Assembly: GCA_000004985.1 (NCBI GenBank)
Contig: GG738866.1
DNA length: 64,000 nt
Direction: 5' to 3' (one strand)
From: Naegleria gruberi
Taxonomy: Eukaryota
Below, in pieces: positions 3,827 through 57,793 of this stretch (the first letter of the stretch is position 1; the number at the start of each line of letters is the position of its first letter). Both the position numbers and the translations under genes were made by a program. The notes under the pieces are model-generated. The model saw only the letters and a list, made by a program, of their open reading frames with translations. It was not told the origin of the DNA and did no database searches.

Positions 3827-5309
3827 TTATCTACGAGTACAAATGAGTTGACCTCTTGGATGTAAACCTTCTTCTTCCAAAGTCTTGTTAATATTAGCTG
3901 ATGTGAGGGAGTATGTTTTTGGTGGAACACCTGGGCAATTGAATGAGAAAGTAGAATCCTTAACCAATGTGGCAATGTGAGCATGGACAGCCTTAATGGT
4001 ATCAGTTGGTTTGAATTTGGCAGTTATGGTTGTACCATCCAAAAGACGAACTCTGATGGCACTTTCTTGTGGTTGGGCAGGAGTTTGAGTGGTAGTTGGA
4101 GTGCTAGTGGCTGAGGATGAACCTTCAGAGCTAGTTGGAGTGGTGTCACGAGCGAGGAAGGCCTTCAAACCCATTCTTTGCAAATCAGTGAGATCCTTTT
4201 CGGCTTGACGAAGTTCTTCAGCCTTACCTTCTTGTCTGAATCTGTCCATCTTTCTTCTAATTTTATCTTCTTCGAGCAATTGTTTCATTCTGAGTTTTTC
4301 CTTCTTTTCGTCTTGCTTTTCCTTCTTGAATAATTCCAAATCTCTCTTCTTTTGATCTTCCTTGAGCTTTTCCATAGTTTCCATGGCCAATTTACCTTGT
4401 TCTCTACGTTTTAATTCTCTTTCCCTTTGTGATTTCTTTTCCTCTTCTTCCATCTTTCTCTTATTTTCCATTCTCTTTTGTTTGAGAAGTTCCTTCATTT
4501 CTTCAGCACGTTTCTTCTTATCTTCTTCAGTTTCAACAGTGAATTGAATCATTTCATCAATATCAGGATCTTCTTGATGTTCAAGCAACCATTCAATACA
4601 TCCTTCCTTTGAAGGTGGTTGTGGTGAATTCAAGAGAGCCTTCATTGATCTCAATTTAGAAAATTCCATTTCCATAAGTTCCTTAAGAATGTTAGCATCA
4701 ACAACTTTTTCAATTTCAGCCATAACTTGTTCATCAGAAACAGTTGTATCTACAGCTTTGGTTTCAGAGCTTGATGATTCTGTGGTGGTTGATGATGGTG
4801 TAGTTGTGGAGGATGAAGAATCAGTCTTTTTAGCATCAGTAGATGGCTTTGTTGTGGCCTTCTTTAACTTGTTTTGCAACAAGGACAATTCAATAGCCTT
4901 ACGAGTTTCGTCATCCAATTCATCAATTTCATCTTCCATAGCATCAACCTTTCTTACTGGTCTATGTTCATCAGCCCATGGATTTTTATAGACTTGACCT
5001 GCCAATCCTGATGAAGTTGTTGTATCAGAACTACTACTACTACTGGTTGCTCCCAAACTTCTACCACCTCCTTGGAAGGCTTGGAATGAATCTCCATATT
5101 CGTTAATCAATTTTTCTACTTTTTGAATATCAGCTCCGACTACAGATGTGAGCTTTGTATTATTCTTATAAAAGACAAATGTTGGCATTGCTCTAACTTC
5201 TTCCTTTGAGGAAATTGCATTATGTTTATCAACATCAACTTTGAGGAAGACAACGTTTGAATATTTAGAGGCAAGTGCTTCATAATGTGGTTTAATCATT
5301 TGACATGGT
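3827..5309 (-). CDS. thioredoxin-UIM-UBA-UBX protein, exon 2. Joined to 5559-5662 across a 249-nt intron (5310-5558), product is about 528 aa
   Basis: The acceptor atatag (rc 5310-5315) is followed by A CCA TGT CAA ATG ATT AAA CCA, giving G-P-C-Q-M-I-K-P and completing WCGPCQMIKP…[13 protein letters not shown]…[10 protein letters not shown] (thioredoxin fold). Downstream motifs: UIM-like [14 protein letters not shown]; UBA-like [11 protein letters not shown]…[16 protein letters not shown]; a K/E/R coiled coil; C-terminal UBX-like [28 protein letters not shown]…PRGQLI. Stop TAA is rc(3827-3829). Confidence 0.75.
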
Positions 5310-5558
5310 CTATATTATTATCATCATTAAATCATATGAATGATTTTGTATATTATTATTATTTCAATCAATGAAAATACAAGATATACATTGTGATCAC
5401 AAAATTAAATCATCGTCATTACATAACCAATTATAATTATCATCATCCGAATATTATTATTATTAAACCAATGATTAATATAAATTATTAATTAGTTAAT
5501 ATATTAATGATCACACAACAATCTCTACCCGATCAAAATCCAACATCACACAACTTAC

Positions 5559-5662
5559 CCACACCATTCAGCATAAAAATCAGCAACCACCAACTTTCCA
5601 GTGCTATTACGGAGGTAACCTCTGAATTCCTCTTCAGAATTAATGTGTTTAACCTTGGACAT
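5559..5662 (-). CDS. thioredoxin-UIM-UBA-UBX protein, exon 1 ([35 protein letters not shown], ends in phase 1)
   Basis: ATG is rc(5660-5662). The exon ends in …GAA TGG TGT GG directly before a GTAAGT donor (rc of acttac 5553-5558). It encodes the front half of the thioredoxin WCGPC motif. Confidence 0.7.
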
Positions 5663-6182
5663 TTTTGATCAACAACAAACAAAAAAAAACCTTTTTTTTT
5701 AAATTTACTTTGGAATTGTGAGGTTATTTTTAGATTTAAAGTTTGTTTGAACTTGGAAATTGTAAACTTTGTTTAATATTATTATTTTTATTCATTTAAC
5801 AAGTTGAATAATATGCAAAATTGATTAAGGGAGCGGAATATCACCATTACATTGAACATGATAAAACTATTCTTTTTCCAAGAAAAATTTGAGAAATTTG
5901 TTAAAAGTTGGATGAGTTCAAAAGAGGTTAGGAAAATAGGCGCGCATTTCACTTTACAGTTTTGATTAGAGTAGAGTCAAGACATGATTGTGAACCAATC
6001 TCAGTAATTTGAGGAAGGAACTTCAACACTTTCTGTAGTTTGAAACGTAGCAAGTTTTCACATAAGGTTTCGAATATACAATTGTGGAAGGTAAAACAGA
6101 AATGAGTAAAAAGAAAGAGGTGGAGAAACGGAATCACTCTACAACTAATCAAATGCTAATGTGTCTGTTCTCATTGTTGTAC

Positions 6183-6576
6183 AGCACGTTTACTTCAAGT
6201 TTGACAAGATTTGGGGAAATTAAAATTGTTTTTTTTAAAATTTAAAGTATTTCATCTTTCAATTTTGATTTGGCAAGTAAACTCAACTCCATTTGAAAAG
6301 AATCTGTAACGATAATATTTTATTCAACAAAATGCTAATTTCTCGATGGAATTAAGGTAGTTTTGAAATCTGACTTCAAATTATGAATCCTCGCATTGAC
6401 ATACCCCTTGGGGTGGCAGCATTCTCAAAAATATGTAGAAATGAGTAAGAACGAGTGGTTAGGTGTTGTTCTATTGAAATGCTTATTTTGGATTTGACAG
6501 CAGAAGAACAACAAAATTTTTTCTAAATAATTTATTTTCTTTCAAAAAACGCGTCAAATTTGAAGTAAACGTGCTG
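6183..6576. mobile_element. non-autonomous MITE (394 bp) with 24-bp terminal inverted repeats and flanking TA/TA, Tc1/mariner (Stowaway-like) type
   Basis: Left TIR CAGCACGTTTACTTCAAGTTTGAC (6183-6206); right TIR GTCAAATTTGAAGTAAACGTGCTG (6553-6576), whose reverse complement matches the left TIR at 23/24 positions. Both ends are flanked by TA (6181-6182 and 6577-6578). The interior is AT-rich and non-coding. Confidence 0.6.
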
Positions 6577-6802
6577 TATCATCTGAAAATGATTATTGTA
6601 CGAGAATCGAATAATGTTAAAAATATGTTGAAACGTGATAGATCGAACATTTCAGGGCCAAACTCCATATTTCCAAATGAGTAGCAAATGTGAAACCACA
6701 ACATCAAGTTAATACATTGGAGTTCCTTCCTTAAATTACTGAGATGCGCCAATTCTGTCAAAGTTGTACAATTAATAAGTCACAAATCAAAACCAATTTT
6801 GG

Positions 6803-7432
6803 ATGCCATTTAAGGAAACTTTAAAAACCAAAGAAATGTGTCAGCTCATGGCGTCAAGGCTTGTGAAATGGTTCATGCCTACCGCCAACTATCATGTTCG
6901 AAAAACAATCAAAAAAAACACAATGATGAACAACTCTAACATCAAGGAATTACATTTTAATAATCAAGAAACAAGCCTTGTTTCGAATGAAAAGATGATC
7001 AGCTCACCATTATCAGAAGAAACATGCTGTACTAACGAACCAGAGAGGGTTTGGATTCATTTCGGTCACATTCCACATGTTTCGAATAGTTTACAACCAA
7101 CAAGCCTTGAGCAAATGAAATCAACTCTTCACCAACCTAAAGTGATGATTGAGAAACAGAGAAAAACAGAAAGACTCCTTCAGGATAGAATCACAGGTAA
7201 ATTATTCTATCAATCAACCGAATCTCATTCGAAATCTCTCAAACAACCTCTGTTTATCCCATCTCAATTCAACGATTCTGAAAGAAAGCCTCCTTCGATC
7301 AAGGAAGAACGTAGAAGAGCCAAAGAGAGGTCTCAAAAAGCCTTGTTAGAAAGCATTCGAAACCAGCCTATTTCACTTCCAACATCCTATTCCATCGTGA
7401 GAAGAGTACTTAACTTCGATGATGAGGAATAA
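6803..7432 (+). CDS. hypothetical basic/Ser-rich protein (209 aa). It is the intact founder copy of the local ~1-kb tandem repeat family
   Basis: ATG…TAA ORF. The whole ORF region reappears in decayed form (frameshifts and deletions) in downstream repeat copies B and C. The product has no recognisable domain and ends …KERSQKALLESIRNQPISLPTSYSIVRRVLNFDDEE. Confidence 0.4.
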   Translation: MPFKETLKTKEMCQLMASRLVKWFMPTANYHVRKTIKKNTMMNNSNIKELHFNNQETSLVSNEKMISSPLSEETCCTNEPERVWIHFGHIPHVSNSLQPTSLEQMKSTLHQPKVMIEKQRKTERLLQDRITGKLFYQSTESHSKSLKQPLFIPSQFNDSERKPPSIKEERRRAKERSQKALLESIRNQPISLPTSYSIVRRVLNFDDEE

Positions 7433-8088
7433 TCAAAATGTCCACCCAAATATCACCAAACGTTCTACGTTCCCTCCAAATAATGGCCTTATATAATAAA
7501 CTTCAATTGTAATCTCAAAAATTTCAGATCTCCTTCCTGTTTCAAGAAAATCTTTTAAAGGAATTTTTGAAGGAGATTTATTTGGTACAAAACTTCCATT
7601 ACTCCAAGCAATTATTAATTGTTGCAAAAAATTGACCTTATTTATCAGAAATGCCCGAGATCATTTTCTCCATTCTGTCACCTTGAAAAAATTGCATATG
7701 AACAAAAGTTCATTCTCGAATTACCAATTCTAAACTTTGAAACTTTAATGGTTTCGAATAATACAACGACTCCAACCACGATTGTATTTGCTCATTTCCT
7801 TATTCTATTTGATCTTTGATGAAAATCGTTTAGGCGAATCATATTATTAAAATGTCATTTTCATGCATGCTTAATATTTTCGAAATGGTCAATAAACTAC
7901 GATATTCGAAATGTAAAGTGACTAGGATAACTAACTTAACTATTACCTTTTTACATTTGTGAAAGATTGAAAAATTCTCATAAAAGTTTCGAATAGATGT
8001 TATATATACCAACAACATCTCTGCTACTCATACGACATGTCATGCATCCAAAATAATACACCATTTAGTCCAGAGACACTTTCCACAT
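7066..8088. repeat. tandem repeat copy A (about 1.0 kb unit; overlaps the 3' half of ORF 6803-7432 plus about 650 bp downstream)
   Basis: The unit begins at TTCCACATGTTTCGAATA (7066) and the next unit begins at the same motif at 8072-8089. Internal segments align to copies B, C and D at roughly 75-90% identity. Confidence 0.6.
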
Positions 8089-8560
8089 GTTTCGAATAAT
8101 TTACATCCAAAAAGCCTTGAGCATGAATTAACTCTGCAACACCTAAAATTATGATGATTGAAAAACAGAGAAAAACTGAAAGACTCCTTCAAGATAGAAT
8201 CACACACAGAGTCTTTCAACATCCTATTCCAACACGAGAAGAGTGCTAAACTTTGCTGACGATGAATAATCAAAAATCACACAAATATCATCAAACGTTC
8301 TACGTTCCATGCCAACACCATAATAAATTTCATAAAATCTCAAAAGTCGTTCCAAATAATTCTATAAAAGGATTTATTGAAAGAATGTCCAAGCAATTTG
8401 ACATACTTGGTCCTCTTCAATTACCTTATAAAAATGACCTTATTTATCACAAATGCCGATCATATTCTCCTTCCATCAACCACAGCTGTCTCCATGAAAA
8501 TTGTTGATTAAAATAATCAAACAGACCCTTAATTGGAAGATCATCATGTTGCATCTCAGT
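8089..8560. repeat. tandem repeat copy B (5' part of the unit, with an approximately 175-bp internal deletion relative to A)
   Basis: 8089-8215 aligns to 7078-7195 and 8216-8560 aligns to 7384-7700, skipping A's 7197-7383. The reading frame of the copy-A ORF is destroyed (an early TGA). Confidence 0.6.
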
Positions 8561-8743
8561 TAGGGTTCTTTTTGAGATGCAATTCTCTGATTGAGACGCT
8601 AACCCTGGTAAGACTGTGTAGTCTGATTGTGTGGGGTACTTATGTAAAATGGAGTTCAATACTTGTTGAAGAAAATTTTTGAAACAATTTTTCACAACAT
8701 TCAAGAGTTAAACAAATAAACAACAAACAAGTTGAGTTATCTG

Positions 8744-9217
8744 ATGGAAAGTTCAAGAAGAATGGGTGGTGGCTCATCTGGAGAGGTTGCAATCATGATG
8801 GAAGAATCAGAAATGTTAAAGGAAAGAGATCAGGAAGGCTTGGAAAGGTATTGTAGAATAGTTTCGAATACATGTGGAGATTATCCTTTGGCATGTTGGA
8901 GTGGAAGGCTTCCCTTTTTTACTTCTATTGATGAGAGTGTGCATAACACGAATCATTGGGATGATCTTTTCAATCAATACTATTCAACTCAACATGTATT
9001 CGAAACATGTCAGGACGAATTGAAACTTTCCACTTTGAAAAGAAAGAGAAGAGTGAAAGAGCCTTCTTTGAGTGCAACACATGAAGAACCTATTGACAAC
9101 GAGGAACAAGATGAATTAGTACAGCTGAATGAAGAGGATTCATTCTCTGGACGAAACATTAAAAAGACGAAACGTTTACATGCATGCTCTTCATTATCAG
9201 AGCAGAAGGAAGAATAA
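8744..9217 (+). CDS. hypothetical 157-aa protein (acidic ends, KRKRR basic patch) embedded between repeat copies
   Basis: ATG at 8744; the track's 8732 start is TTG. It ends TAA at 9215-9217. The composition is richer in G+C than the flanks. It contains two inverted ACATGT/TTCGAA motifs, and no homology is recognised. Confidence 0.3.
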   Translation: MESSRRMGGGSSGEVAIMMEESEMLKERDQEGLERYCRIVSNTCGDYPLACWSGRLPFFTSIDESVHNTNHWDDLFNQYYSTQHVFETCQDELKLSTLKRKRRVKEPSLSATHEEPIDNEEQDELVQLNEEDSFSGRNIKKTKRLHACSSLSEQKEE

Positions 9218-9399
9218 ACATCAAAATTATATTCACCCATAAACATGTTCATTCAATATAAAGAAAGAATTCGTTTTTTTATAGTTTTGTTTTTGTTGAT
9301 CAGAATAATGTGAATGAATTGTTTGAAACTTGGACATGTAGTGATGGTAACGAATGGTATCTGTAAACTCTAGAATAGGTTTCCTGAGAATATCATCCA

Positions 9400-9982
9400 T
9401 TTCGAATAGCATCTCTCCAATATTTCACTTCCCAACAACATCTTTCAATCTCTGAAACGATGCAGTAGTTTCAAATGATATCCCTGCTAAGATTGAAAAA
9501 CTTGATAATCACACTATCTTAGTCACGGTTAATATTTCATATTAATTGCTTGGATGATATTGGGGATTCCAATAACACTGAGCTTACATCGAAAAAGCGT
9601 TGAACAAATGAATTAACTCTGCAATACCTAAAGTGATTATTGAAAAACAGAGAAAAACTGAAAGACTCCTTCAAGATAGATAAAATCACACAAATATCAT
9701 CAAACGTTCTACGTTACATGCCAACACCACAAAAAATTTCATAAAATCTCAAAAATTCAGGTCTCTTTCCTCTTGTTCCAAATAATTCTATAAAAGGATT
9801 TATTGAAAGAATGTCCAAGCAATTTGACATACTTGGTCCTCTTCACTTACCTAATAAAAATGACCTTATTTATCACAAATGCCGATCATATTCTCCTTCC
9901 ATCAACCACAGCCTAAAAAACCCATGAAAATTGTTGATTAAAAAAATCTAACAGACCCTTAATGGAAGAGCATCATGTGCTC
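9400..9982. repeat. tandem repeat copy C (partial unit, further deletion between two AATCACA direct repeats; truncated by the 50-N gap)
   Basis: 9590-9982 aligns to 8100-8560 (for example AAACGTTCTACGTT…GGATTTATTGAAAGAATGTCCAAGCAATTTGACATACTTGGTCCTCTTCA is near-identical). 9400-9560 aligns to 47210-47340 on the far side of the big gap. Confidence 0.6.
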
Positions 9983-10032
9983 NNNNNNNNNNNNNNNNNN
10001 NNNNNNNNNNNNNNNNNNNNNNNNNNNNNNNN
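9983..10032. other. 50-N assembly gap
   Basis: A run of exactly 50 n, directly abutting the 3' end of the U2 gene. Confidence 1.
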
Positions 10033-10599: not shown

Positions 10600-10705
10600 T
10601 TTTTTTTTTATTATTTAAAATAATTTGTTAACGGTAATATTTTTAAAATTACCAAACTTAACACTAGAGGGTATATTAAACCTTTTATTTTACAATTAAT
10701 GTGCT

Positions 10706-10776
10706 CGTCTCGTGGTGTAATGGTAGCATAGTGGACTTTGAATCCATTGACGGAGGTTCGATTCCTCCCGAGACGG
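10706..10776 (+). tRNA. tRNA-Gln(UUG): tRNA-Gln (anticodon UUG), cytoplasmic type, 71 nt, no intron, CCA not encoded
   Basis: Acceptor CGTCTCG pairs with CGAGACG as a perfect 7-bp stem, with discriminator G. D arm GTGT/AATGGTA/GCAT carries an A-box TGGTGTAATGG. Anticodon stem GTGGA/TCCAT; loop CTTTGAA gives anticodon TTG. T arm GGAGG-TTCGATT-CCTCC carries a B-box GGTTCGATTCC. It closely resembles eukaryotic tRNA-Gln (GGTGTAATGGT.AGCA…GGACTTTGAATCC). Confidence 0.9.
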
Positions 10777-10797
10777 TAAACGTGGCGAGCCATGAAA

Positions 10798-46959: not shown

Positions 46960-47560
46960 GCCATACGGCTTACCAAACCTATACTTTGAGACCTTAATAG
47001 GTTCGAATAAGACAATGACTCCAACCACAATTATATTTACTCATTGCCTTATTCGATTTGATCTTTGATGAAAAATCGTTTAGGCGAATCAGATTTTAAT
47101 TGAATGAAATGTCATTTTCATGCAAGCTCAATATATTCGAAAAGGTCACTAAACTGCGCTATTCGAAATGTATTGACTTTTTACTATTGTGAAAGGTTTG
47201 AAACAGTGTCAAAAAAGTAGTTTCAAATAGATGTTTCTAAAGTCGCCAAAGATTGAAGAACTTGATAACCACTTGGTTAATATTTCAAATTGTTAATTGT
47301 TTAGGATGATATTTGGGATTCCAATGCCAGGTTTTGAGATAATGGTGGGCTTAGAATTTAACGAAAATGGTTTACCTGTTGTTTGCCTTCTTGACGTGTT
47401 TTGAAGCTTGGGAATACACTACAATTTCCTTTTTTATCTCAAAACGCGGCATAAAAATGAGTTTACGTCTGATTCCAATAATTCCAACAATGAACTGCTC
47501 GACGCATGTCATGCATCCAAAATAATACCCCATTTAGTCTAATCAACCCAAGAAACTAAA
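46960..47560. repeat. tandem repeat copy D (3' part of the unit) on the right side of the assembly gap
   Basis: GGTTCGAATAAGACAATGACTCCAACCACAATT…GATCTTTGATGAAAAATCGTTTAGGCGAATC…GACGCATGTCATGCATCCAAAATAATA aligns to 7741-8075 of copy A. An insert at 47210-47340 matches 9400-9560. Confidence 0.6.
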
Positions 47561-57664: not shown

Positions 57665-57793
57665 GTATGTATTATACAGAATTAACAATTAATTTAAATA
57701 ATAATGAATAACACTATTAATATTTAAATTAATCGTTAATAATATTACATTACGTTATATATTAATAATACTATTTAAATAATAATTATATAG

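Follow-up and report, generated by a model that had tools for sequence, protein, structure and literature searches.

The window analysed here, 64 kb of contig GG738866.1 of Naegleria gruberi, contains ~28.2 kb of real sequence. The remainder is N, at positions 9983-10032 (a 50-N gap) and 11059-46783 (a 35.7-kb gap). The sequence island between the two gaps carries a tRNA-Gln gene (anticodon TTG) at 10705-10777 on the plus strand. To the left of the gaps, two divergently transcribed genes are separated by an intergenic region of 1,185 bp, and in this region are found two pairs of inverted repeats, one enclosed by the other. Coordinates of the features are in Table 1.

The gene to the left encodes a thioredoxin-UBA-UBX protein. 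Its minus-strand open reading frame, 3827-5299, shows 100% identity to an N. gruberi thioredoxin domain-containing protein of 528 aa at NCBI, and the protein displays the Pfam domains Thioredoxin, UBA_7 and UBX. The mapping of exon 1 places the start codon of this gene at position 5662. The gene to the right, NAEGRDRAFT_48817, encodes a predicted protein in which no Pfam domain was detected. The inner pair of inverted repeats bounds an element that lies 519 bp from the thioredoxin-UBX ATG and 271 bp from the ATG of NAEGRDRAFT_48817. An earlier note on this DNA had put the element upstream of the thioredoxin-UBX gene, and this is borne out, with the ATG at 5662 on the minus strand.

Table 1. 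Features of the divergent intergenic region, its two flanking genes and the repeats to the right, in window coordinates
Feature	Coordinates	Strand	Basis or description
Thioredoxin-UBA-UBX protein gene	3827..5662	-	exon 2 3827-5308, intron 5309-5557, exon 1 5558-5662 (tblastn)
Outer inverted repeat, left arm ATCTCAGTAATTTGAGGAAGGAACTTCAA	5998..6026	+	27/29 complementary to 6717-6745
Left flanking TA, putative target-site duplication	6180..6181	.	direct reading
Left terminal inverted repeat CAGCACGTTTACTTCAAGTTTGAC	6182..6205	+	direct reading, alignment to right arm
Interior, 347 bp, GC 0.29	6206..6552	.	six-frame translation, Rfam, composition
Right terminal inverted repeat GTCAAATTTGAAGTAAACGTGCTG, reverse complement CAGCACGTTTACTTCAAATTTGAC	6553..6576	-	one mismatch vs left arm
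Right flanking TA, putative target-site duplication	6577..6578	.	direct reading
Outer inverted repeat, right arm	6717..6745	-	27/29 complementary to 5998-6026
NAEGRDRAFT_48817, predicted protein, 194 aa	6848..7432	+	cluster look-up XP_002677483.1, same 469,335-bp scaffold
Similar repeat units	7067-7195, 8077-8204, 9581-9692		
Similar repeat units	8273-8549, 9682-9978		
Repeat across the 35.7-kb gap	7721-7915, 46970-47172		the first resembles the second
Candidate 3-bp and 4-bp flanks GTA/TAT; TGTA/TATC			no direct repeat
Candidate 8-bp flanks TTGTTGTA/TATCATCT			no direct repeat
Candidate 9-bp flanks ATTGTTGTA and TATCATCTG			no direct repeat

Direct reading of the sequence from 5900 to 6900 gives a span of 6182-6576 for the inner element, i.e., 395 bp, with a TA dinucleotide outside each end. 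The start had previously been put at 6183 and is corrected here by one nucleotide. In its local context the element reads ...TTGTTG TA CAGCACGTTTACTTCAAGTTTGAC ... GTCAAATTTGAAGTAAACGTGCTG TA TCATCT..., so that its termini are CAG...CTG, directly inside the flanking TA. When the two arms are aligned they prove complementary at 23 of 24 positions; only position 18 differs, with G in one and A in the other. The end sequence available for matching to transposase-bearing elements is CAGCACGTTTACTTCAA. The earlier note had described terminal inverted repeats of 24 bp with a 23/24 match, a CAG start of the repeats and TA on both flanks, and all of these are seen in the sequence. The arms stop abruptly; beyond ~24-26 bp the alignment of the left and right ends passes into gapped AT-rich background.

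The inverted-repeat structure is real and lies far outside chance. No chance match to the 24-mer arm was obtained in 100 dinucleotide-preserving shuffles, and the longest inverted repeat that arose within 3 kb in 40 first-order Markov simulations had at most 19 matched bases, versus 25 of 26 here. When the whole real sequence of the window was scanned for inverted repeats with arms of 18 nt or more lying within 3 kb of each other, only two pairs were returned, the inner and the outer one. No long inverted repeats were found in other Naegleria species, of which ~42 kb of DNA was scanned. The shuffles, the simulations and the comparison with other species thus together confirm the structure that is observed. 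Local palindromes unrelated to the element are present elsewhere in the window, at 654-679 (26 bp, 92%) and at 57681-57740 (61 bp, 82%).

The body of the element is AT-rich, and the GC content of the element as a whole is 0.30. Stop codons interrupt all six frames, none of which stays open for more than 48 codons. A non-coding interior of 394 bp had been claimed for this element. The non-coding character is upheld by the stops in all six frames, but the size is not, as the whole element measures 395 bp and its interior 347 bp. An Rfam search gave no match in the element at E<=1 and no tRNA was detected in it, and a reading of the element as a non-coding RNA gene was dropped on these two grounds. 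As single-stranded DNA the element folds via its terminal stem (z=-3.4). Inside the element, at 6373-6382, the arm core ACTTCAAATT recurs over 10 nt without a mismatch and oriented like the left arm. This internal copy may serve as a binding site, or it may have arisen by chance in AT-rich DNA.

A decayed long palindrome was also considered as the origin of the two arms. However, the complementarity between the two halves of the interior does not exceed that of shuffled sequences, and the spacers that separate outer from inner arms likewise lack complementarity above shuffles; this candidate was therefore rejected. Abrupt arm ends, taken together with a non-complementary interior, indicate a terminal repeat pair and not the remains of a palindrome. 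The element thus has discrete-ended terminal inverted repeats (23/24, or 25/26 when TA is included) with no extended palindromy, and it combines these with the short length, under ~800 bp, and the lack of coding capacity by which a MITE (miniature inverted-repeat transposable element) is recognized.

The outer pair of arms, 29 bp each, is the only other long inverted repeat of the window and encloses the inner element. Its arms are unrelated in sequence to those of the inner pair. When the inner element and one TA are subtracted, a unit of 351 bp remains. Spacers of 153 and 138 nt separate outer from inner arms, and their mutual complementarity is not above that of shuffles. Unrelated arm pairs and non-complementary spacers point to two discrete pairs of ends, and thus to a small element within another. 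The outer arms are probably the ends of an older host element that received the inner one. The outer unit shows no clear target-site duplication; at best AT/AT can be read, with ends of CTCAG...CTGAG. No second copy of it was found in the available data.

The centres of the two pairs, at positions 6379 and 6371.5, are within 8 bp of each other, so that the pairs are nearly concentric. A random insertion would fall this near the centre of a 351-bp outer unit with a chance of ~6%. This low figure under independent insertion is one of three observations that agree with a different explanation, whereby the structure is a locus-specific inverted repeat that does not move, formed either by sequence-specific sites or a structured part of a bidirectional promoter or by the leftovers of a local inverted duplication. 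The other two are that both pairs lie between divergently transcribed genes, and that the repeat is single-copy in all sequence searched, i.e., the window and collections that hold no N. gruberi genome. Nevertheless a duplication or a structural element is at odds with arm spacers and an interior devoid of complementarity, and arms of 24-29 bp that stand 350-690 bp apart are atypical for regulatory sites. The region is conserved in no other Naegleria locus compared, and a non-mobile origin leaves the exact junction of TA, CAG...CTG and TA unexplained. A non-mobile repeat is for these reasons considered unlikely, and the nested pairs are read here as probably one small element inserted into another.

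The question of which type of transposon is represented depends on the flanking sequences. TA dinucleotides have a frequency of 0.064 in the window, from which TA on both of two arbitrary flanks would be expected in ~0.4% of cases. It should be noted that TA is self-complementary, and TA/TA can therefore be read equally well as the outermost 2 bp of an inverted repeat of 26 bp; a BLAST self-comparison reports the repeat in this form, at 26 bp with 25/26 identity and with TA included. The orthologous regions of N. lovaniensis and of two Naegleria contigs are non-homologous upstream of the thioredoxin-UBX ATG and offer no empty site. TA/TA may be internal to the repeat. Other superfamilies duplicate target sites of characteristic lengths: 8 bp in hAT, 9-10 bp in Mutator, TWA in PIF/Harbinger, TTAA in piggyBac and 3 bp in CACTA. 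At the flanks of the element no direct repeats of 3, 4, 8 or 9 bp were detected, whether the ends are taken as 24 bp or as 26 bp (Table 1). As direct repeats of those lengths are missing, the signatures that PIF/Harbinger, piggyBac, hAT and Mutator usually leave are ruled out. CACTA was rejected as well, as the termini read CAGCAC and not CACTA and the 3-bp direct repeat is absent.

Tc1, pogo and related families target TA sites (e.g. PMC4007536). The putative assignment of the element to this group is based on its TA flanks and its CAG start, and on no other feature. No transposase is encoded by the open reading frames of the window, which has ~28 kb of real sequence.

An alternative assignment is to a non-autonomous transposon with terminal inverted repeats outside Tc1/mariner, in which TA would either end a 26-bp repeat or be there by chance, and a genuine target-site duplication would have decayed or be absent. 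The self-complementarity of TA/TA and the 26-bp BLAST repeat lend themselves to this reading, and CAG termini are found in hAT and other superfamilies too. The DNA transposons reported for the sister species N. lovaniensis are CMC-EnSpm and piggyBac, with no Tc1/mariner class (PMC6125883, Table 3), and TA-targeting families beyond Tc1/mariner exist, e.g. 'Cobalt' in Capsaspora (PMC4007536). On the other side stand the absence of 3-, 4-, 8- and 9-bp direct repeats for both end readings, and termini that are neither CACTA-like nor flanked by TTAA. In addition, near-perfect arms speak against a decay that erased a longer duplication. Such a transposon is thus distinctly improbable here, and a member of the Tc1/mariner group remains the preferred assignment.

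Comparison with other Naegleria loci shows the setting in which the nested pair is found. Gene order and sequence agree with N. lovaniensis and two further Naegleria contigs (Logan/ENA) from position 1 of the window to the start codon of the thioredoxin-UBX gene, and this synteny ends exactly there. The sequence from 5663 to 9982 is not conserved in these three loci, either as DNA or as protein, and no empty site is found in them. Removal of the 748-bp nested unit would reduce the intergenic region from 1,185 bp to 437 bp; the corresponding interval between gene calls in N. lovaniensis is 630 bp. To the right of the element, between 7067 and 9978 and again at 46970-47539, are diverged repeat units with 68-88% identity to each other and a spacing of ~1-1.5 kb. 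One of these units overlaps the annotated gene NAEGRDRAFT_48817, and the repeats probably account for the 35.7-kb N gap. The end of synteny, the repeats and the gap thus place the nested elements where a conserved gene block meets a region that is lineage-specific, rich in repeats and poorly assembled.

The proximity of the 50-N and 35.7-kb gaps, the larger of which is flanked by repeats, raises the question of an artefact of assembly or cloning in this draft scaffold. However, the element lies in continuous sequence with the nearest gap 3.4 kb away, and the neighbouring genes are intact and match annotated proteins. Inverted ends of 24 bp with TA flanks, moreover, are not products of such artefacts, and an origin of this kind is extremely unlikely.

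A close relative of N. gruberi is represented by one metagenome contig, k127_245981 of ENA ERZ929261 (1311 bp), which displays 89.5% identity to positions 6740-7672 of the window and then runs into sequence similar to 8214-8813; it is ~0.5-0.8 kb shorter than the window in that part. The contig starts ~6-8 nt inside the outer arm, and it is therefore uninformative on the insertion.

The ends and the body of the element were used in a search for further copies with mismatches allowed, and no other copy was found within the 28 kb of real window sequence. Public collections were scanned in addition, none of which includes the N. gruberi genome. Among JGI metagenome contigs, a 20-mer of the terminal inverted repeat had one GC-rich bacterial chance match without a second arm. 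A 17-mer had ten chance matches to phages in IMG/VR, again without a second arm, and no match to the terminal repeat was present in the GTDB genomes. The outer terminal repeat and a 21-mer of the interior had no genuine match in such scans. A six-frame pseudo-protein of 1,126 aa was built from 5669-6810 so that gene calls overlying further copies in public assemblies would be caught. It was compared with 5.8 billion predicted proteins, and no match was obtained at E<=10.

Published accounts put the transposable element content of N. gruberi at 0.28% (bioRxiv 10.64898/2026.06.24.734286), and its repeats are largely unclassified (PMC12344493). In the literature searched, very few transposons of Naegleria are classified and no Tc1/mariner family or MITE of Naegleria is described, nor are the ends reported here. 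These annotations count against the Tc1/mariner reading, as do the single copy seen, the absence of an empty site from the loci compared, the palindromic nature of TA and the absence of a transposase from the window.

The element shares a number of traits with Stowaway-like and other Tc1/mariner-derived MITEs, e.g. plant Stowaway and the mariner-derived elements of amoebae and giant viruses. These too are hundreds of bp in length, non-coding and AT-rich with short terminal inverted repeats; they have TA on both sides, lie adjacent to genes and tend to be nested in other small elements. Stowaway-like families, however, have tens to thousands of copies, and their ends are common to a known transposase-bearing element, whereas only one copy of the Naegleria element is seen, with no known partner. 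Its ends, CAGCACGTTTAC..., are also unlike those of Stowaway, CTCCCTCC. With the ends of Tc1 and of pogo-Tigger (CAGT..., CAGG...) the element has in common a 5′-CAG right after TA and a terminal repeat of 20-30 bp, although the likeness of the end sequences presumably covers the first three bases and goes no further. Tc1 and pogo-Tigger have a DD34E or DDD transposase, and none is linked to the Naegleria element. Nested MITEs offer a third comparison. As in these, there are two unrelated pairs of inverted repeats, one enclosing the other, and a unit, here of 351 bp, remains after removal of the inner element. The outer Naegleria unit differs in that it lacks a clear target-site duplication and is single-copy in the data available.

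A MITE is by definition a member of a multi-copy mobile family. The earlier reading of the element as a MITE holds with respect to the terminal inverted repeats, the sharp CAG...CTG ends, the TA flanks, the AT-rich non-coding body and the intergenic position, but neither the window, with its 28 kb of real sequence, nor the collections scanned, which do not include the N. gruberi genome, contain a second copy to bear it out. A recent insertion had also been claimed, and this does not follow from the 23/24 identity of the arms. Both arms are constrained to one transposase-binding sequence, and their identity is therefore no clock.

From the inverted ends, sharp boundaries, TA flanks, absence of coding capacity, nesting and genomic context, all of which are observed, we infer that the element is or was mobile, that it would belong to the superfamily proposed here and that a transposase source would exist. 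The element probably represents one copy of a small cut-and-paste transposon (MITE) that is non-autonomous and targets TA, most likely of the IS630-Tc1-mariner/pogo group, and that is nested near the middle of an older inverted-repeat element.

The mechanism that may be proposed is taken from established knowledge of the Tc1/mariner/pogo superfamily. A DDE/D transposase encoded elsewhere would bind both 24-bp ends, excise the element and integrate it at a TA dinucleotide via staggered cleavage, and repair of the gaps would duplicate the TA on either side. An empty site would then be expected to have a single TA and to read ...TTGTTGTATCATCT... / ...CTCATTGTTGTATCATCTGAAA....

The element is plausibly an ordinary MITE, its family membership putative, and at most a new representative of a known class in a species for which the catalogue of mobile elements is poor. 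A more far-reaching possibility would be an uncatalogued TA-targeting family of N. gruberi, whose genome reportedly has hardly any classified transposons; such a family would be still or recently active and prefer the centres of palindromic elements, with the nested pair marking a lineage-specific breakpoint of synteny beside a large block of unassembled repeats. This is very unlikely.

There is no sign of an effect on the neighbouring genes, and the general view is unchanged, as TA-flanked MITEs are common across eukaryotes. If confirmed, the element would extend the short list of transposons known from this heterolobosean model organism by a small Tc1/mariner-like family and point to a source of transposase, and its nested structure would provide a ready-made empty-site test.
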